Source: a bacterium
GTDB taxonomy: Bacteria > Patescibacteriota > Doudnabacteria > UBA920 > VMFF01
DNA: 64,000 nucleotides
NCBI GenBank assembly: GCA_021811585.1
Contig: JAJZOG010000014.1
Coordinates: 2,577 to 66,576, forward strand
Direction: 5' to 3'
Shown here: positions 4,740 through 53,820 of the stretch, piece after piece
Position numbering within the stretch: position 1 is the first letter of the stretch
Layout of the letters: each line of letters starts with the position of its first letter
Program-made: the position numbers and the translations under genes
Notes under the pieces: generated by a model
Database searches by the model: none
What the model saw: the letters and a program-made list of their open reading frames with translations, nothing else
Told to the model about the DNA's origin: nothing

Positions 4740-4923
4740 TTTTTGCAAGCCGGCGACAAGCCGGCGACAAGCCGGCGGTTTGGCTCCTCGCCATGCGCCG
4801 CACTCGCCATGAGCCGCATATGAAATGCGCCATGCATGTAAAATCCGCGTGTAGCGAGGCACCGTGCATGTGAGGGCCGTATACGCAGGTGCCGTATACG
4901 CTGCGTAGAAATGGCTACCATCA

Positions 4924-5339: not shown

Positions 5340-7262
5340 ATGGATGTCAACCAATTTGCTTCGGAAAAAAATTTGAAAGACGCGAGCAGCGGCAATATCG
5401 GCGCTGGCAATGGAAATATAGGCAATGGATCACAGCCGCCATCTCCGAAAATACCGGAAGAACTTGTTTTTAAAGTGATGCCCAAAGGATTTCCATTGCC
5501 AAAAATAAATTTTAAACAACCTGCGCCCGAGCCTGTGGCCATGGCCGCGCCTCATTCAACCGCGCCGGCGCCATCATCATCATTAGCATCGTCGCCATTG
5601 CCTCCGCCGCCTCCACCACCACTGCCGCCACAATCATCAGTGCCGGCGCCACAATCATCGCCGTCACCATTATCAGCGCCACGATCCTCGTCGCTACAAT
5701 CATCACCATCACAATCATTATATGGAATACCCCAAACTTTTGCGAAAAAAGCATCGCCGGTCCCACCTTTAAAATCCTTGCCAACCTCGATGCCGCCCCC
5801 AAGGGCAGCTCCAATTTCACAGGTTCAATTTTCACATGCTTCGCAGGCAGCGCAACCGCAAACTCCGCAGCTCGGGGCCGCTGGCGCACCAGCATCAAAT
5901 AATGCAGGGCAATCTCCTAATGCAGGACAATCTCCGAGTTCACTCGGCCTGCTTCAGAACGATTTTGATGCCGGCCTGTTTCAGAGCAGAATGTCCGGCA
6001 AGAAAATTTTATTTTTTGCCGGCATAGGAATTATTGTTTTGATTCTGCTGGGCAGCGGCATTTATGCCTACACGCGGCTCTCGAAAAAATCTCCGGCTCC
6101 AATTCCCGCGTCCCAAACAGCCGGTTCCGGGGAAATTCCGGGCAGCGGAAATTCACCGGGAGCAGGGTCGTCGCCAAATTCGAGTCAGACCCCGTCCGTA
6201 CAATCTCAAATACCATCTTCTTGGCTGCAAAAATATTTCGGTGAAACTGTCTGCGCAGACCAAAATGTCTGCGGCGATAATGCAGATCCTGATCACGACG
6301 GCCTCACAAATTTGGAAGAATACAAACTCGGCACTGATCCGAACAACCCCGACAGTTCTGGGAGCGGGATTGCGGATGGCGATAAGGTTCATGTTTTTAA
6401 TTTGGATCCGCTCTCGGATCACACCGCGGGCATTTTAAAATACACCGATGCAGGCGATTTAAAATATAAATATAATTCGCGTACGCACCAGCCATTCACA
6501 GCCGAAGATTTGGCGAAAATCGCAGCGAACATAAAACAATATGGGTTGCACGAACCCACAATTATGACCTTAGGACCCGATCTTGTAAATTTTTACACCA
6601 ACGGCGGCGGTGTGGCGGCGGGCGGGAATTCGAGCCCCACAGAAGAGCTTAACCGCGATACCCAGCGCGCGGACACCATCAAACAAATTAGCTTTGCTCT
6701 TATAAAATATCAACAAAGCAACGGCTCGTATCCGGATACAAATGATTTCACGACAATGATAGCAGATATCCAACCCATTCTTTCCGCAGGCCGAGCGATA
6801 AATACAACGGATCCGCTTAACACGCCCCCTTATATTTATGGCTACCAGTCCGTAAATAGCGGCGCGGATTTTAAGCTCTCTTATTTTTCCGAAACGCAGA
6901 ATCAGGAAATTGATATTGATGCCGCGGAAGCCCTGCAGGAGTACAGCAAGGATCAGGAAGACCAGCATGATGCCCAGCGGCAAAACGATTTGCAGCAAAT
7001 TGCAAATGCTTTGGAATTGTACTCGAATGACAATGCCAACCCAGCCGATCCTTCACAAAAGGTTTTTCCTTCAGAAACAAGCTGGAAAGAGGCGATTTCA
7101 AAATATCTTTCGCCAATCCCCGTTGACCCGAAAACAGACCAAGATTACACTTACACAGTTTCCCCGGACAACACACGTTTTGCGATTCAGGCGGTTTTAG
7201 AAGACCCTCCGACAGGGGACAAAGGTTATGTTTGTTCCCAGGATGGGTGTACGTATTACTAG
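5340..7262 (+). CDS. Proline-rich membrane-anchored protein with two pseudopilin-core-like repeats (hypothetical)
   Basis: It has a PPPPPPLPP tract, a single TM (ILFFAGIGIIVLILLGSGIYAYT), DPDHDGLTNLEEYKLGTDPNNPD (calcium-binding-like), and two segments resembling the GspG/pilin core (ADTIKQISFALIKYQQSNGSYP; DLQQIANALELYSNDNANP). Confidence 0.55.
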   Translation: MDVNQFASEKNLKDASSGNIGAGNGNIGNGSQPPSPKIPEELVFKVMPKGFPLPKINFKQPAPEPVAMAAPHSTAPAPSSSLASSPLPPPPPPPLPPQSSVPAPQSSPSPLSAPRSSSLQSSPSQSLYGIPQTFAKKASPVPPLKSLPTSMPPPRAAPISQVQFSHASQAAQPQTPQLGAAGAPASNNAGQSPNAGQSPSSLGLLQNDFDAGLFQSRMSGKKILFFAGIGIIVLILLGSGIYAYTRLSKKSPAPIPASQTAGSGEIPGSGNSPGAGSSPNSSQTPSVQSQIPSSWLQKYFGETVCADQNVCGDNADPDHDGLTNLEEYKLGTDPNNPDSSGSGIADGDKVHVFNLDPLSDHTAGILKYTDAGDLKYKYNSRTHQPFTAEDLAKIAANIKQYGLHEPTIMTLGPDLVNFYTNGGGVAAGGNSSPTEELNRDTQRADTIKQISFALIKYQQSNGSYPDTNDFTTMIADIQPILSAGRAINTTDPLNTPPYIYGYQSVNSGADFKLSYFSETQNQEIDIDAAEALQEYSKDQEDQHDAQRQNDLQQIANALELYSNDNANPADPSQKVFPSETSWKEAISKYLSPIPVDPKTDQDYTYTVSPDNTRFAIQAVLEDPPTGDKGYVCSQDGCTYY

Positions 7263-7441
7263 GGTTACTGGGGTCCAACCCAAACCCCCAACCTAAACCC
7301 CTGATCCAAACCCCCAATCTAAAACCCTAACCTAAAAAATAATGCACTTTTAAAGGACTTTTTCTTAACTTCTTCTTAAATACTTAATAAAAAACCCTGG
7401 ATTAGGGTTTTAGATTGGGGTATTAGGTTGGGGGTTTGGGT
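7263..7441. repeat. Long imperfect inverted repeat built from C-rich/G-rich heptamers, with a G4 motif on the + strand
   Basis: The 5' arm 7272-7330 (ccaaaccccc aacctaaacccc...) is mirrored by the 3' arm 7384-7441 (gggtttta gattggggtattaggttgggggtttgggttgg). Confidence 0.8.
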
Positions 7442-7450
7442 TGGACCCAT

Positions 7451-7819
7451 ATGCAAAATATTATTACTGCAAAAGTTTTAGAATGGCACAAGCATCCAAA
7501 CGCAGACCGTCTGCGAATAGTCAAAGTGGATGCGGGGCCAGAGCATGGAATTATAGAGCCGGTTGTGTGCGGCGCGACGAACTTTGATGTTGGCGATATT
7601 GTGGTTTTGGCGCTGCCCGGCGCGCACATAGCGCAAAATATTCACAGCGAAACGCACGAGCCATTTATTTTAGATAAAGCCGTAATTCGCGGCATCCAAA
7701 GTCAAGGGATGCTTTGTGCTGCCTTTGAATTGGGCCTTAGTAGCGAGCCGGAGCCGATTATTTTAGTACTCCCTTCTGGAACCCTTGTGGGTAGCGAGTT
7801 TCAGCCACAAATGGTATAA
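7451..7819 (+). CDS. Standalone tRNA-binding domain protein (PheT-N-terminal/CsaA/Trbp111-like OB fold)
   Basis: AKVLEWHKHPNADRLRIVKVDAG...VVCGATN...GDIVVLALPGA...QGMLCAAFELGL matches the tRNA_bind (EMAP/Myf) motif set. ATG at 7451. Confidence 0.75.
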   Translation: MQNIITAKVLEWHKHPNADRLRIVKVDAGPEHGIIEPVVCGATNFDVGDIVVLALPGAHIAQNIHSETHEPFILDKAVIRGIQSQGMLCAAFELGLSSEPEPIILVLPSGTLVGSEFQPQMV

Positions 7820-7871: not shown

Positions 7872-9009
7872 ATGAACATCACTATTACCTCGGATAAAGA
7901 AAAGCAACTCAAAGAAACCCTCCAAAGCAAAACAGATTTTCAGAGCCAGCGCATCAGGCGCTATTTAAAGATGCCCGATCTCTCGCGCACGCCCGGCAGT
8001 CCCATTTATGAGCTTGCCCAGCGCATCACCAACCTCCATGAATTTAAAAATTTCGATATCATAGAAGTGCCTGAAATCGTCCCCGCGGACATTAGTTTTG
8101 ACCTTTTCGATTTTCCGCCGGACCATCCGGTGCGCAGCCCTTCGGACACATATTATATTGATCCCCAAAATATTCTCCGCACCCACACAACAGTAATGTG
8201 GTATTACTACCTCATGAATGAGGATATAAAAAAGCGCATCGCCGCAGGCGAGGCGGTTGGTTCGCTTTGCTACGGCAAAGTTTTTCGCAAAGACGAAATT
8301 GATCGCCGGCACATGAATATTTTTCATCAAATGGACGGCTGGTATCTTTGCCGCAAAGATGAAAAAATCATCACAACAACGGATTTGCAAAACGTGCTCG
8401 CAAAAAATCGCGCAAGCGGTTTTCGGTCCCGACATAAAATACCGTTTCAACGAGGATAAATTTCCTTATACTGATCCGTCGCTTGAAATGGAAATTGATA
8501 TTGACGGCAATTGGATAGAGGTCTTGGGCAGCGGCGTTGTTAAGGGGAGCGTTTTGGAAAAATTGGGAGTGGATTCGTCCAAATACAACGGCTGGGCATT
8601 TGGCTTTGGCTTGGAGCGCCTGGCAATTGTGAGTATGGCTTTGCCGGATATCCGTTTATTATGGTCTGAGGACGAGCGTGTTAAGCGCCAGCTAAAGTTG
8701 GGAAAAAAATTCCAGGAAGTGAGCAAATTCCCGCCGATTACGCGCGACATTTCATTTGTGGTCGGCAAGGATTTTGTGCCCAATAATTATTTTGATTTGA
8801 TCCGGGAAATCGGCGGCGATCTTGTGGAAGAAGTGGAGCTTTTGGATAAATATGAAAATGCCGCGAAGTTCGGTCCGGATAAAATCAGTTATACATACCG
8901 CGTGGTTTACCGCAGCCCGGAACGCACGCTTAAGAGTGAAGAAATAGATCCGTTGCAGGACAAACTTTATAACGAAACAAAAACGCAATATCAAGCGGAA
9001 TTGAGATAG
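7872..9009 (+). CDS. pheS: Phenylalanyl-tRNA synthetase alpha-type catalytic core fused to C-terminal FDX-ACB domain; interrupted by a 1-nt frameshift in an A6 run (~8402-8407)
   Basis: Class II motifs are present: HPVRSPSDTYY, LRTHTT, FRKDEIDRRHMNIFHQMDG (frame 0), then FPYTDPSLEMEI...GWAFGFGLERLAI (frame +1). The C-terminus FPPITRDISFVVGKD... is FDX-ACB-like. Assuming A7 instead of A6 gives a continuous ...VLAKKIAQAVFGPD... Confidence 0.75.
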
Positions 9010-9146: not shown

Positions 9147-9224
9147 TTTTTGGCAGGGGAATCACCGCTGCTTCCGGCAGGGGAATCACCTTCGATTCCA
9201 GCAGAGGGATCACCTCTGATTCCG
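9147..9224 (+). repeat. 3 x 24-nt tandem repeat in the gyrB 5' leader
   Basis: ggcaggggaatcaccgctgcttcc / ggcaggggaatcaccttcgattcc / agcagagggatcacctctgattcc. Confidence 0.8.
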
Positions 9225-9293
9225 GCCATGGTTTCGCAGATTTTTTCATTTCATTTTTTCGTCTCATTTTCACCTAATTTTTCATCCAATTTA

Positions 9294-11580: not shown

Positions 11581-11722
11581 CAAAAATTTTGAGATTTTTG
11601 AAATTTCGCGAATTTGAAATCCCGCGAATTGAGATTTTCAAAATCCCGATTTTCAAAATCCCGAGAATTTTGAAAAGAATTTTGAAAGTCAAACTTATTA
11701 TAAAAAATTATTAAAGACAAAC

Positions 11723-14455: not shown

Positions 14456-14536
14456 TTTAAGCCGTGGAATTTTTTCTTTGGCGTCAAAAGCACAGCGCCA
14501 AAAACGCAGCGCCAAAAGCGCGGGGCAAAAACATCA

Positions 14537-16818: not shown

Positions 16819-16920
16819 CCTCTATCAACTGCCAACTATTAACTACCAACTATTAACTACCAACTACTAACTACTATCTATCAACCTATTAACTACCAAC
16901 TACTATCTACCAACTACCAC
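16819..16920. repeat. Heptamer tandem repeat (CTACCAA / CTATCAA)n, copy 2 (inverse orientation)
   Basis: ...ctatcaactgccaactattaactaccaactattaactaccaactactaactactatctatcaacc... directly upstream of the thyX ATG. Confidence 0.8.
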
Positions 16921-16922
16921 CT

Positions 16923-18641
16923 ATGTTTACAGACGAAGAAAAAAATATTTTACAAAAATATGTAACCTCGGCCGAAGACAATGTTTTCGCGATCAAGGGT
17001 TTAAGTGGAATCGTCGGCGCGGTTTATGCGAGATATTCGCGCGCAAAAGGCGGTTTCCGCGAAACTTTGCTTAAGGAATTTGTCCAAGAGGGAAATATTG
17101 ATCCAAAGCACGCGGACGAATTGATTGCGCGCGTTTTAGTGGCTTACGGCGACGATAGCGTCGGCGAGCTTGAGGGGGCGCATGTTTCCTTTGAGAAGAT
17201 TTCAATTCTTTCGACAAAGGAAATTGAAGACCACCGCATCGGCGGATCGCCGATAGAGCAATCCACGCGCTATGTTTTTTACGATCAAAAAGACGACAGC
17301 GGCAGTTGGTTGTATTACAGAGGCGCGGAGCTTGCCGAAAATCCTAAATTCGGAAAGCAATACTTGCAAACCATGGATTTTATTTTCCAAACATACGCGG
17401 ATTTGGTTGAGCCCATGAGGAATTATTTTATGGCTTTAAAGCCCTTGGAATCGGCTGAATATGATATTAACGGCGACGGCGCCAAGGAAAAATGGTCGGA
17501 TCTTACAAATGAAAAAGACCAGAAAGCTTTTAAAATCACTTATAATGCGGATTTAAGAACAAAGGCCTGCGATACGCTGCGCGCGCTTTTGCCTCTTTCA
17601 ACTTTCACGAATGTCGGCATGTTTGGCAACGGCAGATTTTTTCAGACAGTAATTACGCATTTGCTGAGCCAGGACATGCCTGAATTCAAAGGCATAGGCG
17701 AAAAAGCGCTTGCGGCGCTTTCGGAAGTGATTCCGCAATATGTGCGCCGCGCGAAGAGGAACGAATATGATGCGGGCATAAGGCAGGCAATGTATGGGCT
17801 TGCAGGCGAGGTTTTCGGGGATGAAATTGGAAAGCCGCCCGCCTTGCCGCATTACGAACTTTTGGACAAAGGTGAGCGCTTTATAGTTCGTAAATTTGAT
17901 GAAATCCGCAAATCCAAGCCGCAGGCAGGCGAGGCCGATATTCTAACCGAGGCAATGCAGTATGCCGATGATTTGCGCGAGATGGCTAACATTATTTATC
18001 CTTTTTCGGGGCTTTCCATGAACGCATTGATGGATAAAATTTCGAAAATGAATGATGCGCAAAAAGAAAAAATCATCAAAACATATATTGGCGAACGAAA
18101 AACCAGGCGCGACCGTCCGGGGCGCGGATTGGAAAGCGGCTATGAATATAATTTTGATTTGGTCACGAACTGGGGCGTCTATAAGGATTTGATGCGCCAC
18201 AGAATAAATAGCCAACAGCGGCAATTATTTACGACCAAAATCGGTTTTTACATGCCAGAGGAATTGGTTAATGCCGGGCTTGAGGAAAAAGCGCTCGAAT
18301 GCGTGAGCAAAGCAGGCGCTTTGTACGATTTAATCGCTGAGCAGGATCGCGTTTTGGCGCAGTACGCTGTTTTGCACGGGCATTATGTGCGCTGGAGCAT
18401 GTCCTTTAATGATCGCGAAGCCATTCATATGCTGGAACTGCGTTCTACTCCGCAAGGCCACCCTAATTACCGCCTGGCGGCGCAAGCCATGCATAAATTA
18501 ATTGAGCAACGAAGCAAGTGGCGCGCGGAAATAATGAGTTTCGTTGACCATAATGATTATTATTGGTCGCGGGGAGATTCCGAGGCAAAGCAAAGGGTTA
18601 AAGAAAAAGAGTTGGACGAGCAATTTAAGCCCAAGCCCTAA
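16923..18641 (+). CDS. thyX: FAD-dependent thymidylate synthase ThyX, apparent tandem-duplicated (pseudo-dimeric) form
   Basis: Two ThyX signature-like motifs are present: DHRIGGSPIEQSTRY in the N-terminal half and MRHRINSQQRQ in the C-terminal half. At 572 aa it is about twice the canonical ThyX length. It sits in the dTMP pathway operon. Confidence 0.6.
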   Translation: MFTDEEKNILQKYVTSAEDNVFAIKGLSGIVGAVYARYSRAKGGFRETLLKEFVQEGNIDPKHADELIARVLVAYGDDSVGELEGAHVSFEKISILSTKEIEDHRIGGSPIEQSTRYVFYDQKDDSGSWLYYRGAELAENPKFGKQYLQTMDFIFQTYADLVEPMRNYFMALKPLESAEYDINGDGAKEKWSDLTNEKDQKAFKITYNADLRTKACDTLRALLPLSTFTNVGMFGNGRFFQTVITHLLSQDMPEFKGIGEKALAALSEVIPQYVRRAKRNEYDAGIRQAMYGLAGEVFGDEIGKPPALPHYELLDKGERFIVRKFDEIRKSKPQAGEADILTEAMQYADDLREMANIIYPFSGLSMNALMDKISKMNDAQKEKIIKTYIGERKTRRDRPGRGLESGYEYNFDLVTNWGVYKDLMRHRINSQQRQLFTTKIGFYMPEELVNAGLEEKALECVSKAGALYDLIAEQDRVLAQYAVLHGHYVRWSMSFNDREAIHMLELRSTPQGHPNYRLAAQAMHKLIEQRSKWRAEIMSFVDHNDYYWSRGDSEAKQRVKEKELDEQFKPKP

Positions 18642-21498: not shown

Positions 21499-21525
21499 AG
21501 CCAACCTCTCGTTTCGGGAGGTTTT
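21499..21525 (+). terminator. Rho-independent terminator after ftsX
   Basis: ccaacctctcgtttcgggaggtttt hairpin plus T-tract. Confidence 0.6.
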
Positions 21526-21527
21526 AT

Positions 21528-21640
21528 GTTTAGTGATTGATAGTTAGTAGTTAATAGTTGATAGTTGATAGTTAATAGTTAGTAGAACTACCAACTACCA
21601 ACTACCAACTACCAACTACCAACTACCATTTACCGCCTAC
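21528..21640. repeat. Heptamer repeat locus 3: (TAGTTGA/TAGTTAA)n arm followed by (AACTACC)6 arm, forming an imperfect inverted repeat
   Basis: tagttaatagttgatagttgatagttaatagttagtag ... aactaccaactaccaactaccaactaccaactacca. The arms are complementary with G-U wobbles only when read on the minus strand. Directly upstream of rplI. Confidence 0.8.
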
Positions 21641-21648
21641 CAATTTAC

Positions 21649-22095
21649 ATGCGAATTATTTTTCTAAAAGATTGTCCCGGTCAGGGCAGAAAAGGCGAGG
21701 TCAAAGATATTAGCGACGGTTATGCTAAAAATTTTTTGATACCAAAAGGATTTGCAGTGCTCGCCACTCCTTCACTTGTTAGCAAACTGGAAAACGAAAA
21801 ACGCGCACAAGCGGAAAAAGAACGCAGAATTTTGGAAGAGCACGCGAAATTAAAGGATGAATTGGATAGGCGGACATTCACAATTGCCGTGAAAACAGGG
21901 GATAAGGATCAGATTTACGGTTCTGTCCACGAAAAAGACGTCTCAGCGGCAATAAAAGGGAAAACCGGTTATGAATTTGAAAAAAATCAGATTGTTCTTC
22001 CCGGGCACATAAAAGAACTCGGTGAATATACAATAGAAATCCGTCTCGCGGGGAATATTATTGCGCGCCCCAAAATAAAATTAATAAAAATTTAA
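21649..22095 (+). CDS. rplI: 50S ribosomal protein L9
   Basis: MRIIFLKDCPGQGRKGEVKDISDGYAKNFLIPKGFA is the L9 N-domain signature. Confidence 0.9.
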   Translation: MRIIFLKDCPGQGRKGEVKDISDGYAKNFLIPKGFAVLATPSLVSKLENEKRAQAEKERRILEEHAKLKDELDRRTFTIAVKTGDKDQIYGSVHEKDVSAAIKGKTGYEFEKNQIVLPGHIKELGEYTIEIRLAGNIIARPKIKLIKI

Positions 22096-29022: not shown

Positions 29023-30069
29023 CTAGCCGTTTTCATTTGATGCTGTCCATTGCGCGTGTATATGATAATCCGGGCGGCCCACGCAGGTATTTATATCTTT
29101 TTGGGCTTTAGGGCCGTTTAAATCAGTTAAATCAAGAACTAAAAATTGATGTTGGGAAACGCCCGGTAAATTACATTCAACCGCTGCTAGTAATAAGCCG
29201 TTGTTTTGGAGTTTTTGGAGAATTGCCGGTATTTGGTCCTTGCTTGATGGTACGAAATCAACGGCCTCACCGGCATAATGCGGATCATTTTGAGAAGCGT
29301 GGTGGCCGCTTGTGATAGAAGTTACGGATACTCTTAGATTATTGTTTGCTACTTCAATAAGCCCCTTAATCAAATTATCATCAATTGATGTTGTTCCTGC
29401 ATCGCATATTTTGCCCGGGCCGTCATATTGCGCGTCTTGGCCGGCTGCGATTGCCGACAAATTTAGCAGCGGCCCGTTTGGCGGGCAATCCGTGCCAGGC
29501 GCTAAAAGTATTTTACCCTCGCTTGCCAACTTTAAAAGCGCTTTTGCATTATCTTGGGTGCCCGCATCAGGAGCATTTGCCGCGACTTGCGGCGTTGTCG
29601 GTATAGTGCAATTATTGGCATCGCAATTTATGGGCGCAAGAGGTTCTACATTTATATTCGTGAGGTTGGGGTCAATGGTATTTAGGAATATATAAGATCC
29701 AAAAAGAATTACCAGCCCGAAAATCGTTGATCTTATGAATTCCTTGCCTTTTTCTTGTTTGCCGCTCATGTACATGTAACCGGCAAGCACAAACATCAGC
29801 ACTGCCACAAAACTGCCAATGCTGATTGCGAATATATAAACATTATTTAAGCACCTGGCAAAATTATATTGGGAAGTGTTACTGCTGTTGTCAGGAGTGC
29901 AAATCATGTCAAAGGTGTTTGAGGAGCTCGAATTCGGGCCTGATGGCGATGATCCCGAGGCAAAAGCCCGCGGTGTCAGGGATGTTATGAGGAAAGCTGA
30001 ATAAAATAAGGTAATGATTGCAAAGAGCAAAAGAGCTAATTTTTTTTCTGAATTTTTTATTTTTTTCAT
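29023..30069 (-). CDS. Membrane protein with C-terminal LAS/M15-like zinc-peptidase motif (putative peptidoglycan peptidase)
   Basis: Two TMs; SGHHASQNDPHYAGEAVDF resembles the H-x6-D ... H-x2-G-x-A-x-D zinc site of VanX/M15 peptidases. Adjacent to the M23 peptidase gene. Confidence 0.4.
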   Translation of the reverse strand: MKKIKNSEKKLALLLFAIITLFYSAFLITSLTPRAFASGSSPSGPNSSSSNTFDMICTPDNSSNTSQYNFARCLNNVYIFAISIGSFVAVLMFVLAGYMYMSGKQEKGKEFIRSTIFGLVILFGSYIFLNTIDPNLTNINVEPLAPINCDANNCTIPTTPQVAANAPDAGTQDNAKALLKLASEGKILLAPGTDCPPNGPLLNLSAIAAGQDAQYDGPGKICDAGTTSIDDNLIKGLIEVANNNLRVSVTSITSGHHASQNDPHYAGEAVDFVPSSKDQIPAILQKLQNNGLLLAAVECNLPGVSQHQFLVLDLTDLNGPKAQKDINTCVGRPDYHIHAQWTASNENG

Positions 30070-48924: not shown

Positions 48925-49528
48925 ATAAATTTATTTTTTGAGTGGCTCGCCTTTATCTGTGGCGGCCTTTCTTTTTGCCGGCCGCATCCGGTTTTTCTGC
49001 TGCGGTTTTTCTGCTGCGGTTTTTGTATGAAGTGCACATATTCCGTGCAAACTTTTGCTTAACCTACCTAATTTCTAATTGATTTTAACAAAAAACCGGA
49101 GTTTTTACAAATGCGAATTGGACTTTTGACTTATTGCACAAAGCCGCGCGGCAGTTAATATATGGCTGATAATCGCATTTTAAAACTCTTTTGCGGGTGA
49201 ATTTTAAAACTCTTCGCAGAGAGTTTTAATTTTGCACAAGCCAAGAGTTTTAACTTTTCACCAGCAGAGAGTTTTAATTTTGCCTCTGCTATTTTTTCAA
49301 CAAATTATAGAAACTTTCAATATGGCTGTCAGTGCCGCAATAAAAAATATGCGACGTAAGGTTTACGCAATATTGCGGATTTTTATGAATGAAATTATAC
49401 TTCGGCAAAAACCAAAATAAAAAACCAAGAACCCCAAGAATAATTATATAAAAGATGTATTTTATGAGACGGAACATTTTGACTTATTATTTTAGTTTTT
49501 CGTTTTACTTATGCCGGGAGCCGCTATT

Positions 49529-51858: not shown

Positions 51859-53820
51859 TTATTCCGAAGTTATTTTGTGCGATTCCCCGGGTTTTAAAAT
51901 TTTTTTATGTTGCTGGCCGTGATTATTCCTGTCCTGAGCGCTGTTTCCCGTGCTCAAACTTTTTGCCAGGGTATTTGCCAAACCGGCGGCCAGGTTTTGT
52001 GATTTTTGCCGGTTCATTTTAGCAGCTGTTTCCCAAATGGCATTATCTTTTTTTGCCATTGGCCTGGCGGGGTGGTTCGCAAAATGGTTTCCAGAATGGT
52101 TATTTGAATGCATGTTCCTGGTTTGGCCGGTATTATTTTTGCCGTAGGAATTGTGCGGCTGGGGGCTGCGCGCATTATGTGTTTGGAAATTATTCGGCCG
52201 GGGATTGTATTGGGAATTATATTGCCGGGATGCATGCGGTTCGATGTTTTCGTATTTTGTTTTTTGCGCTTCCTTTGGTTCCCGGCCAGGTTCCTTTGTT
52301 TCCTTGTCTGCTTCTGTATTTGTTTTTTTGCCTGCTGTATTCGTTTCCCAGTCTGGTGCTGCGTTCGATTGTTGTGCCGCCATATTTTGCGCCGCACTGC
52401 TGGAGACCGTTTTTTCCATTTCAGCCGGCGCTTGTGGCGCAACCGCTGTTTCCACTTCTTCTTCGCCCTCCTGGCGCGCGCCGCTGGCAATTACAGCGGC
52501 TTGTTCGTGATATTCCTGCCCCATCCAGCGCAATATTTTATCTTCAACTTCAGCAACGGGATTTGCATATCTTTCCCGTGAGATGCGAATTACTTTGTCC
52601 GTATTGGCTATTTTTCTGTGGGTTTCCGGCGCCAAGGTTGTGGCCGTAAAAGGGTCGGAAGCCACGCCGTTAATCATTAATTTTAGAATGATGTGATGTT
52701 TGGGCAGATTCACCAGATCGTTTTCCGTAAATTGCGGCGCAAATTCTTTTTCTAAAAATTCCGAATCAGCCGCGCCCACGCGAAAAGTGACGATTGTCCC
52801 GACGTTGCCGAAAACCGCGTCGCGCACTTTTGTGCTTCTGCCGTCGCTGCCTGTGAGCTGGCCGATATATTGATGCCCGATTGTGAGGTTCAGGCGGTAT
52901 TTGCGCGCCTCGGAAAGTATTGTGGCAAATGATTCCGTGGCAAAATTTTGGAATTCGTCGACGTACAAAAAGAAATCGTGGCGTTCCTGCTCGCTGATAT
53001 CGACGCGCGAAAGCGCGGCCAGCTGGAGCTTGGTGATAAGCATGGCGCCGAGCAAATCGGAATTGTCCTCGCCGATGCGCCCTTTGGCAAGATTCATTAA
53101 GATTATTTTTTTGTTGTCCATGAGCGAACGCAAATCAATGGTGCTTTTCGGCTGGCCGACAATGTTGCGTATAATTCCAGATGAAAGGAATTGCCCGACT
53201 TTATTTTGGATTGGCGCAATGGATTCCATGCGGTATTTTTCGTTCCAATTCGCGAATTCATCCACCCAGAAGGATTTGACCATCGGGTCTTTGATATTGT
53301 CGACAATCCGTTTGCGGTATTTTTTGTCTATCAGCATTCGGGAAATTCCGAGCAGGGTGTTGCCGGGAGAATCCAAAAGCGCGAGTATGGCGTTATTTAA
53401 GATATATTCCATGCGCGCGGACCATAAATTAGCCCAAATTTTTGTGAACACGCCCATAAGCCCCGAAGCAACCAGATGCTTGTAATTCGGGTCAACCGCT
53501 TCCAAAATATTAAAAGCAATCGGAAATTCCCTGTCAGCGGGATTGAAATAAACCACGTCGTTCACGCGGCTTGAAGGCACGTAATCCAAAATTTTCTCAA
53601 CTGAATCCCCGTGCGGATCCACAAACGCCAAGCCGTTGCCGTTCGCTATGTCTTGGATAATCATGTTTTCCATGAGCGTTGTTTTGCCCATGCCGGTTTT
53701 TCCGATGATATACATGTGCCGGCGCCGGTCTTCGCGCTTTATGCCAAACGGCACTTCCTTGTGGCGGAAGTTTGTCTTGGCGAAAATTGTGATGTCGTTG
53801 TTATCCTGTTCTGCGTCCAT
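51859..53820 (-). CDS. TraD/TrwB/VirD4-type coupling-protein-like P-loop ATPase lacking N-terminal TM segments, with long disordered Q/N/K-rich C-terminal tail
   Basis: Walker A IIGKTGMGKTT; LAFVDPHGDS, YFNPADRE and FNILEA blocks, in spacing, match F-TraD/TrwB. Walker B-like FFLYVDEFQNF. Residues ~430-653 are low complexity. Confidence 0.6.
   Translation of the reverse strand: MDAEQDNNDITIFAKTNFRHKEVPFGIKREDRRRHMYIIGKTGMGKTTLMENMIIQDIANGNGLAFVDPHGDSVEKILDYVPSSRVNDVVYFNPADREFPIAFNILEAVDPNYKHLVASGLMGVFTKIWANLWSARMEYILNNAILALLDSPGNTLLGISRMLIDKKYRKRIVDNIKDPMVKSFWVDEFANWNEKYRMESIAPIQNKVGQFLSSGIIRNIVGQPKSTIDLRSLMDNKKIILMNLAKGRIGEDNSDLLGAMLITKLQLAALSRVDISEQERHDFFLYVDEFQNFATESFATILSEARKYRLNLTIGHQYIGQLTGSDGRSTKVRDAVFGNVGTIVTFRVGAADSEFLEKEFAPQFTENDLVNLPKHHIILKLMINGVASDPFTATTLAPETHRKIANTDKVIRISRERYANPVAEVEDKILRWMGQEYHEQAAVIASGARQEGEEEVETAVAPQAPAEMEKTVSSSAAQNMAAQQSNAAPDWETNTAGKKTNTEADKETKEPGREPKEAQKTKYENIEPHASRQYNSQYNPRPNNFQTHNARSPQPHNSYGKNNTGQTRNMHSNNHSGNHFANHPARPMAKKDNAIWETAAKMNRQKSQNLAAGLANTLAKSLSTGNSAQDRNNHGQQHKKILKPGESHKITSE

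Follow-up and report, generated by a model that had tools for sequence, protein, structure and literature searches.

A palindrome of 13-nt tandem units at the gene junction before tRNA_bind-pheS in a Doudnabacteria genome

Introduction

How does a palindrome of almost 180 nt come to lie between two co-directional genes of a streamlined Patescibacteria genome, and does it do anything there? The question is raised by a junction within a 64-kb stretch of DNA (hereafter the window: 64,000 nucleotides, positions 2,577 to 66,576 of contig JAJZOG010000014.1, assembly GCA_021811585.1) from a member of the Doudnabacteria. A first-pass annotation, made from the letters of the sequence, had described an imperfect palindrome of about 180 nt between a gene for a proline-rich (Pro-rich) membrane protein and a gene for a tRNA-binding protein. 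Both parts of that description hold: the flanking genes are as named, and the element, 178 nt in length, has mirrored C-rich and G-rich arms that are able to form a hairpin. The same annotation read the arms as heptamers, some of them telomere-like, recognised a textbook G-quadruplex (G4) motif in the G-rich arm, and proposed a terminator or attenuator, a remnant resembling a miniature inverted-repeat transposable element (MITE), or a G4 regulatory element. These proposals fared less well.

Here, we describe the palindrome as an array of 13-nt units with an inverted copy of itself, and as one instance of the lineage-specific tandem arrays that inflate gene junctions in this genome. With a probability of roughly 55%, we take it to be a by-product of replication slippage and template switching that has no conserved function and acts as a hairpin. 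All coordinates are positions within the window, and loci of relatives are given as labels (L063 etc.). The features discussed are collected in Table 1.

Architecture of the palindrome

The palindrome is the longest inverted repeat within the window. In the best register returned by a repeat finder, arms of 49 nt (7271-7319 and 7400-7448) are 86% complementary, and shifted registers extend the left arm to 7337. When one 13-nt indel is allowed, the arms align at 26 of 26 positions, then one arm has 13 extra nucleotides, and the alignment resumes at 20 of 20. The arms are 100% complementary over their outer 26 nt, which thereby constitute terminal inverted repeats of the kind expected of a MITE; the 26-nt terminus is GGGTCCAACCCAAACCCCCAACCTAA, and the termini read GGGTCC...GGACCC. 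The base of the stem lies 8 nt past the upstream stop codon and 2 nt short of the downstream ATG. The spacing between the arms, estimated earlier at about 55 nt, is in fact 71-80 nt, the arms quoted in that estimate being 71 nt apart.

Tandem Repeats Finder (TRF) assigns both arms a period of 13 nt, not the 7 nt of the proposed heptamers, with 4.8 copies at 7275-7336 and about three at 7400-7444; the element is thus a tandem array, defined as at least three head-to-tail copies. The unit register is CCAAYCYAAACCC. Units L1 (CCAACCCAAACCC), L2 (CCAACCTAAACCC), L3 (CTGATCCAAACCC) and L4 (CCAATCTAAAACC) of the left arm are followed by a decayed L5. After reverse complementation, the right-arm units R1 and R3 are identical to L1 and L4, respectively (13/13 each), and R2 matches L2 at 11 of 13 positions. 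The arms differ by exactly one 13-nt unit (L3, which is missing from the right arm) plus two substitutions. Likeness between units within the left arm averages 78%, whereas cross-arm partners are 85-100% alike. The sequence CCAAACCCCCAA occurs three times exactly within the element and, with up to one mismatch, four times in the whole window against 0.71 expected.

Table 1. Positions of the palindrome, its parts and its neighbouring genes, with the lengths of the corresponding junction in relatives and of other inflated junctions in the same genome
Feature	Position	Strand	Length	Remarks
Upstream Pro-rich membrane protein gene	5340..7262	+	640 aa	stop TAG 7260..7262
Gap between the two genes	7263-7450		188 nt	filled by the palindrome
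Palindrome (imperfect inverted repeat)	7271-7448		178 nt
Left C-rich arm	7271..7337		67 nt	GGGT + five 13-nt units; 29 C, 4 G
Left-arm unit starts	7275 (L1), 7288 (L2), 7301 (L3), 7314 (L4), 7327 (L5)			L5 degenerate
Mirror extended-loop G4 motif	7279..7327	-		C-tracts on plus strand; G4Hunter mean -1.34
10-mer AACCCCTGAT	7296..7305	+		in closest relative's spacer too; 33 vs 32 nt from stop
AT-rich spacer	7338..7399		62 nt	76% A+T
Small inner hairpin AAAACCCT-GGATT-AGGGTTTT	7391..7411			spacer/right-arm boundary; too weak for terminator scan
Right G-rich arm	7400..7448			inverted copy of L1, L2, L4
Extended-loop G4 motif G3-N9-G4-N9-G5-N3-G3	7405..7440	+		G4Hunter mean +1.27
Downstream tRNA_bind gene	7451..7819	+	122 aa	PF01588; first of tRNA_bind-pheS pair
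Same junction, L065			2 nt	no repeat
Same junction, L067			9 nt	no repeat
Same junction, L202			53 nt (called)	in-frame ATG 7 nt past stop; no repeat
Same junction, L203			80 nt	AT-rich; no repeat
Same junction, L063/L064			83 nt	closest relative (82% aa identity); no repeat
PIN -> helicase			59 nt	TAGTTGG heptamers; relatives 4 nt
Pro-rich -> tRNA_bind			188 nt	13-mer palindrome; relatives 2-83 nt
pheS -> gyrB			283 nt	24-, 13-, 12-mers; relatives not directly comparable
dCTP deaminase -> next gene			81 nt	14-mer; relatives 11 nt
tmk -> thyX			107 nt	14 heptamers up to ATG; relatives 10 nt
ftsX -> rplI			199 nt	heptamer palindrome

Origin of the palindrome

The architecture of the arms suggests an order of events. 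Units are more alike across the arms than within one arm, which makes the inverted duplication younger than the tandem amplification, and the difference of exactly one unit between the arms suggests that slippage is still acting. In the course of events that we propose, replication slippage would first have multiplied the 13-nt C-rich unit where it stood, in an ancestral spacer of about 80 nt. The array would later have been copied in inverted orientation across the AT-rich core, likely by intramolecular template switching as in quasipalindrome formation, and one of the arms would then have gained or lost exactly one unit.

Comparison with relatives bears on both the age and the source of the element. 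The gene order helicase, small membrane protein, Pro-rich, tRNA_bind, pheS, gyrB is kept in every relative retrieved, and some homologues of the tRNA_bind protein are labelled Candidatus Doudnabacteria or Patescibacteria group. The palindrome is absent from this junction in all five relatives compared (L063/L064, L203, L202, L065 and L067), and it is not a conserved cis-regulatory element of the tRNA_bind-pheS operon. The closest relative does share some sequence with this genome at the junction. TAGGRTTAC right after the stop is common to both genomes, and the 10-mer of Table 1 lies at almost the same distance from the stop in each. This 10-mer falls mostly inside L3, the unit missing from the right arm, and is internal to the arm rather than flanking it. 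Among 5000 shuffles, any 10-mer match was obtained in 82 and a match at the same offset in 2. The shared offset, at a position internal to the arm, favours growth of the array in place over insertion of foreign DNA.

A 12-mer within the tRNA_bind coding sequence also resembles the repeat. At 7475-7486, GTTTTAGAATGG equals the right-arm unit GTTTTAGATTGG (7407-7418) with one mismatch and is complementary to L4 (7314-7325); it encodes a KVLEW motif that is largely conserved in relatives. It could be the seed of the repeat, or a chance match (rough p ~0.03).

The junction is not the only one in this genome to have been expanded. TRF arrays scoring at least 45 number about 24 in the window, most of them in its first 22 kb, compared with 3 in the 58.7 kb of three syntenic relatives taken together (L065, L067 and L203), a density about ten times lower. 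Most of the window's arrays lie at gene junctions that are tight in relatives. The gaps that hold intergenic arrays measure 59-283 nt, as against 2-11 nt in relatives, and the units of these arrays, 7-24 nt in length, differ in sequence from locus to locus (4746-4818, 9152-9292, 11583-11687, 14481-14532 and 48989-49283). Arrays in coding regions are all in-frame, with periods that are multiples of three (6, 9, 12, 18, 21 and 30). The combination of inflated intergenic arrays and multiple-of-three coding periods points to a general tendency to slippage that is filtered by selection.

Folding and transcription

The hairpin-forming palindrome is real and lies far beyond chance. Against dinucleotide-shuffled controls (200 per run, three runs), the plus-strand RNA folds at -86.3 kcal/mol (z -7.9), the minus-strand RNA at -93.8 kcal/mol (z -8.7) and the DNA at -53.4 kcal/mol (z -10.2), and in each case none of the 200 shuffles folded as well. 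In the predicted structure, 7271-7296 pairs with 7423-7448 in a helix of 26 bp, followed by a bulge of 15 nt and a second helix of 21 bp; the bulge corresponds to the extra unit of the left arm.

Signals for starting or ending transcription were sought in and around the element. A scan of 7100-7600 returned no intrinsic terminator-like site on either strand, and no U-tract follows the stem on either strand, the next bases being ACCCATATG (+) and CCAGTAACC (-); the terminator or attenuator proposed in the first-pass annotation therefore finds no support. No sigma-70-like promoter was found by scan inside the element, although Patescibacteria promoters may escape the sigma-70 consensus, and by eye the spacer contains no TAnnnT hexamer better than 3/6. 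Clear -10 boxes of the TGnTATAAT type are seen in other intergenic regions of this genome.

Given that neither promoter nor terminator was detected, and that L065 and L067 have junctions of 2-9 nt, a single polycistronic mRNA most likely carries both arms, which would fold together there. Such an mRNA would form an interrupted hairpin of 47 bp (26 bp + 21 bp), which should behave as do intercistronic stem-loops of the repetitive extragenic palindromic (REP) or Correia type. The hairpin could shield the upstream cistron at its 3' end, could modulate or occlude downstream initiation or loop out the insert, and its predicted stem would be long enough to serve as a substrate for RNase III.

Has the hairpin, then, been selected? 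It could act as a stabiliser of the upstream 3' end, as an RNase III site that uncouples the two cistrons, or as a means of looping out the 178-nt insert so that stop and start lie side by side and the ancestral coupling is kept. We consider selection for such a role unlikely, though it accounts for several features: the arms are near-perfect despite diverged tandem units, the base of the stem adjoins both the stop and the start codon (8 and 2 nt), and the junctions of 2-9 nt in L065 and L067 are compatible with ancestral translational coupling. RNase III needs a minimum helix length, and a helix of -86 kcal/mol with 26 + 21 bp would be long enough. On the other side, the palindrome occurs in none of the relatives, the single sequence provides no covariation support, and other inflated junctions of the same genome are not palindromic, an example being the 107-nt array before thyX, which contains one G.

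Several considerations also weigh against the by-product of slippage and template switching that we prefer. The element is known from one genome only, as a single sequence, and its near-perfect arms are equally expected of a recently transposed MITE or of a selected hairpin. About 74 kb of the genome has been seen, and other copies may exist elsewhere. The 10-mer homology was spotted after the fact. Co-transcription is inferred from absent consensus sites, and the promoters of Patescibacteria may be of a kind that a sigma-70 scan passes over. Finally, the expression and structure of the element are those predicted from its sequence and by folding.

Copy number and family membership

A transposable origin would be expected to leave other copies. 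The host sequence available for searching comprised the window and 9.5 kb of the contig upstream of it (~74 kb). No second copy was found by blastn-short in the rest of the window or in the relatives' loci (chance matches of 10-16 nt, none significant), nor in the 9.5 kb upstream, so that the multiple dispersed copies of a MITE are lacking within this part of the genome. A blastn search of plasmids and phages with the element returned nothing, viral contigs yielded nine single chance matches and no second copy, and the 25-nt arm terminus had 0 matches in JGI metagenomes. The 17-mer CCAAACCCCCAAYCTAA had at least 60 single matches in unrelated taxa among species-representative genomes (the source genome is not among them); none of the matches listed is multiple, and they are at or below chance and carry little weight. 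The element is therefore unique in everything searched and, as seen above, not conserved in relatives, which are two of the three outcomes that the first-pass annotation had named as counting against its own suggestions.

No target-site duplication is present, as the flanks GGTTACTG and ATATGCAA (...TTACTG / ATATGC) share no direct repeat. No Rfam 15 family matches at gathering thresholds. At E<=10 nearly all matches are to miRNA-precursor models from plants and animals, and a few are to other families of small RNA; all score 13-40 bits against thresholds of 45-195, and they reflect a generic long hairpin. Nor does the element fit the REP or bacterial interspersed mosaic element (BIME) class, being 178 nt long, single-copy and bounded by GGGTCC...GGACCC.

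A MITE-like non-autonomous transposon, or the remnant of one, would have an AT-rich core between terminal inverted repeats of 26 bp or more, and would explain a 178-bp intergenic element with perfect 26-nt termini that the orthologous loci of relatives lack. This origin is nevertheless improbable. Besides the lack of a second copy in the sequence searched and of a target-site duplication, no transposase gene lies nearby, the arms consist of tandem units, of which one arm has exactly one more than the other, and the 10-mer that is homologous by position to the closest relative's spacer lies inside the left arm and not beside it.

G-quadruplex potential and other readings

The G-rich arm does contain four G-tracts, spaced by loops of 9, 9 and 3 nt, as had been described. 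They are not, as had been claimed, a textbook motif: loops of 9 nt exceed the 7-nt limit of the canonical definition (four tracts of G>=3 with loops of 1-7 nt), and a regular-expression search of both strands found no canonical motif within the element or in the rest of the window. Under a relaxed definition (loops up to 12 nt, G4Hunter >=1.2) both arms qualify; with loops of up to 9 nt they are the sole two motifs of the window, and they are also its longest stretches above the G4Hunter threshold. Judged by motif and score, the relaxed G4 propensity of the arms is real. When quadruplexes are admitted in ViennaRNA (gquad option), the hairpin stays the minimum-energy fold, at -85.9 and -93.2 kcal/mol, and the isolated right arm folds without a G4, so that a quadruplex is not its preferred fold. 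On this model, a G-quadruplex or i-motif would be a minor alternative conformer at most.

It is very unlikely, on these grounds, that the G-rich arm before the ATG tunes tRNA_bind-pheS as a G-quadruplex or i-motif element, folding into a G4 either as RNA or on the non-template strand of the DNA, with the hairpin as the competing state of a switch. Each arm has at least four G3-5 tracts, with G4Hunter magnitudes of 1.27 and 1.34, and heptamer repeats with G-tracts from Xanthomonas and Nostoc form G4 in vitro (PMC4692102). Yet the motif is non-canonical, the quadruplex-aware model chooses no G4, not even when given the right arm by itself, the complementary arm lies only some 70-80 nt away on the same strand, and the element is neither conserved nor recurrent. 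The resemblance to telomeres is of the same order: exact CCCTAAA is absent from 7263-7450, and it occurs eight times elsewhere in the window against 11 expected. Both the G4 and the telomere likeness are superficial.

Two further readings can be dealt with briefly. The C-rich arm (~50-65 nt) might serve as a rut-like loading site for Rho, with termination in the AT-rich core, making the element a bidirectional Rho-dependent terminator or insulator; the left arm, with its 29 C and 4 G in 67 nt, starts 8 nt past the stop codon, and the C-rich arm comes first on both strands. This is highly improbable, since downstream genes including the essential pheS would need a promoter in the spacer, where the scan detected none, and the heptamer palindrome at 21537-21643 of the same genome has the opposite polarity. 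No rho gene is found among the annotated window proteins, and Rho, MutS/L and RNase III are all absent from the 28 window proteins examined. An assembly or library fold-back artefact is hardly credible: although the palindrome is split in the ENA/MGnify assembly ERZ27237454 between a contig that ends at 7411 and one that begins at 7316, this assembly agrees base for base over each arm with GCA_027365855.1 (contig DAHXLS010000002.1), and a fold-back chimera would not give a unique 62-nt spacer and arms that differ by a 13-nt unit and two substitutions.

Comparison with known repeat elements

The REP elements of Enterobacteria and Pseudomonas measure 20-40 nt, number in the tens to hundreds, bear a GTAG or CGTC tag and are linked to RAYT transposases. 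Like REPs and BIMEs, the present element is an imperfect palindrome between co-directional genes of an operon, with a predicted stable hairpin near the upstream stop from which protection of the 3' end would be expected; unlike them, it is 178 nt long and single-copy, with no tag or RAYT in evidence. MITEs with long terminal inverted repeats include the Correia/NEMIS elements of Neisseria, ERIC/IRU and RUP, and Correia elements are cut by RNase III. The element shares with these a size of 100-200 bp, terminal inverted repeats of about 26 bp, an AT-rich core, an intergenic position, a long hairpin and co-transcription (here predicted). It departs from them in having no multi-copy family and no target-site duplication, and in its tandem-repetitive arms, the left of which is partly ancestral local sequence. 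Template-switch mutagenesis at quasipalindromes (Ripley; Lovett) turns nearby imperfect inverted repeats into long, near-perfect ones, and arms that are more alike than the units within one arm are what it would leave behind. It is a mutational mechanism rather than an element family, and one that we infer for this element.

The closest described class, ahead of REP/BIME elements and long-repeat MITEs, which are analogues in function, is that of the intergenic G-tract simple sequence repeats (SSRs) of Xanthomonas and Nostoc, with units GGGAATC or GGGGA(C/T)T, the equivalent of cyanobacterial STRR1 (Rehm et al., 2015; PMC4692102). These SSRs number hundreds over the genome, and inverted copies have been noted as stem-loops that compete with G4 (PMC4692102). 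Both they and the present element consist of short tandem units with one G-tract each, placed between co-directional open reading frames (ORFs) at no more than 50 bp from a stop or start; in both, inverted copies may form stem-loops as against G4, and neither has an established function. The differences lie in the unit (13 nt here, 7 nt there), the G4 loops (9 nt as against 3-4 nt), the restriction to one locus, and the host, a Patescibacteria metagenome-assembled genome. Intergenic direct repeats of the heptamer TAACTGA have been described from Beggiatoaceae, Thiocystis violascens, Cyanobacteria and Bacteroidetes (MacGregor, 2015; PMC4679880). They sit just upstream of starts that lack a Shine-Dalgarno sequence, including those of ribosomal-protein genes, and are occasionally inverted (PMC4679880). 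The palindrome's own 13-nt unit differs from them; their best match in this genome is the neighbouring YAACTAY arrays described below, and both kinds reach within a few nucleotides of start codons.

Taken class by class, the element is a tandem array with terminal inverted repeats and a relaxed G4 motif, and is not a canonical G4, an intrinsic terminator, a REP, a multi-copy MITE, a telomere-like repeat or a member of an Rfam family. It belongs among the intergenic SSR-derived palindromes, a known kind.

Inflated junctions and heptamer arrays

As a species-specific structure with no conserved role, the element itself matters very little. Its context is more useful: in a streamlined Patescibacteria genome, about a dozen junctions have grown from 2-11 to 59-283 nt by tandem repeats, including those before the essential genes pheS, gyrB, secE, thyX and rplI. 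If this is general, it would amount to a natural experiment on how far tight operon junctions tolerate insertion and how self-folding buffers it, and would bear on whether the unexplained heptamer arrays of cyanobacteria and Beggiatoaceae extend to the Candidate Phyla Radiation. No report of STRR- or TAACTGA-like heptamer arrays from Patescibacteria was found in the literature searched.

A bolder reading is that short tandem arrays, among them the STRR/TAACTGA-like YAACTAY heptamers also seen in metagenome contigs, have recently invaded operon junctions throughout the genome, the 13-mer palindrome being one product that was co-opted as a hairpin/G4 switch before tRNA_bind-pheS. We regard this as distinctly doubtful. 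Were it true, the repeats would have to be generated or spread by a sequence-specific mechanism not yet recognised, or to play a role in Shine-Dalgarno-less translation initiation.

Arrays of a single heptamer family, YAACTAY (equivalent to CCAACTA), are found at three junctions. At 1564-1602, 4.7 copies precede the helicase gene, which has GGAGGG about 12 nt upstream of its ATG. At 16822-16923, 14 copies take up the gap between tmk and thyX as far as the ATG, and its 107 nt contain a single G. At 21537-21643, before rplI, about seven TAGTTRA units are followed by eight AACTACC units, and the resulting palindrome ends 5 nt before the ATG. Neither thyX nor rplI has a Shine-Dalgarno sequence. 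The rplI palindrome (21520-21660) folds as antisense RNA at -61.7 kcal/mol (z -11.9), through 43 uninterrupted pairs that include many of the G-U type, and far more weakly as sense RNA (-38.5 kcal/mol, z -5.9); wherever its arms differ, the sense strand has an A-C mismatch and the antisense strand a U-G pair.

Three successive AACTACC units occur in at least 120 JGI metagenome contigs of 33-72% GC. Among the 63 AACTACC arrays with adequate flanks, seven are accompanied on the 5' side, at a distance of up to 120 nt, by an inverted heptamer array rich in TAGT; on the 3' side there is no such case, the background being 2%. The restriction to the 5' side suggests that heptamer palindromes with the G-rich arm first recur across taxa. 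Examples are found at L088 (120-235), L125 (2485-2560) and L124 (1-125), the last of which joins GGGGGTAGA, AACTACC and AATCCCC arrays.

Flanking genes and minor observations

The 640-aa Pro-rich ORF upstream has no Pfam match, and its C-terminus (...GCTYY*) aligns to that of the closest relative (...GCQYY*). Downstream, tRNA_bind is followed by pheS and then gyrB. In this genome and the closest relative, the tRNA_bind protein is without an N-terminal extension of 12-35 aa (M..W/F.KKLF...) that is present in all of the more distant relatives aligned, most of which have very short junctions; L203 is an exception, with both the extension and an 80-nt gap. In these alignments, loss of the extension would largely coincide with the appearance of a sizeable spacer at the junction. 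An extension of tRNA_bind into the G-rich arm was considered for the present genome, but an in-frame TAG at 7424-7426 excludes it.

The loop of the palindrome, upstream of pheS-type genes, contains a mini-ORF (7342-7353) that reads ATG CAC TTT TAA, or Met-His-Phe-stop. A leader-peptide attenuator like pheM was considered and rejected, as the mini-ORF has one Phe codon and lacks both a ribosome-binding site and a terminator; it is probably due to chance.

In the window, pheS (7872-9009) is split into two frames (7872..8459 and 8359..9009). It contains a run of six A at 8402-8407 where GCA_027365855.1, which encodes an intact PheS of 378 aa, has five, and this run is the only difference between the two assemblies across the 11.1 kb compared.

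On the scale of the window, cumulative GC skew peaks near 36-40 kb and then drops, and the genes turn from mostly plus to mostly minus over about 24-40 kb; the two together fit a replication terminus within the window, or a skew driven by gene orientation. Type IV secretion-like genes lie at 29023-30069 (-), with a weak match to VirB2/TrbC-type pilins, and at 51859-53820 (-), encoding a TrwB/VirD4-like coupling ATPase.

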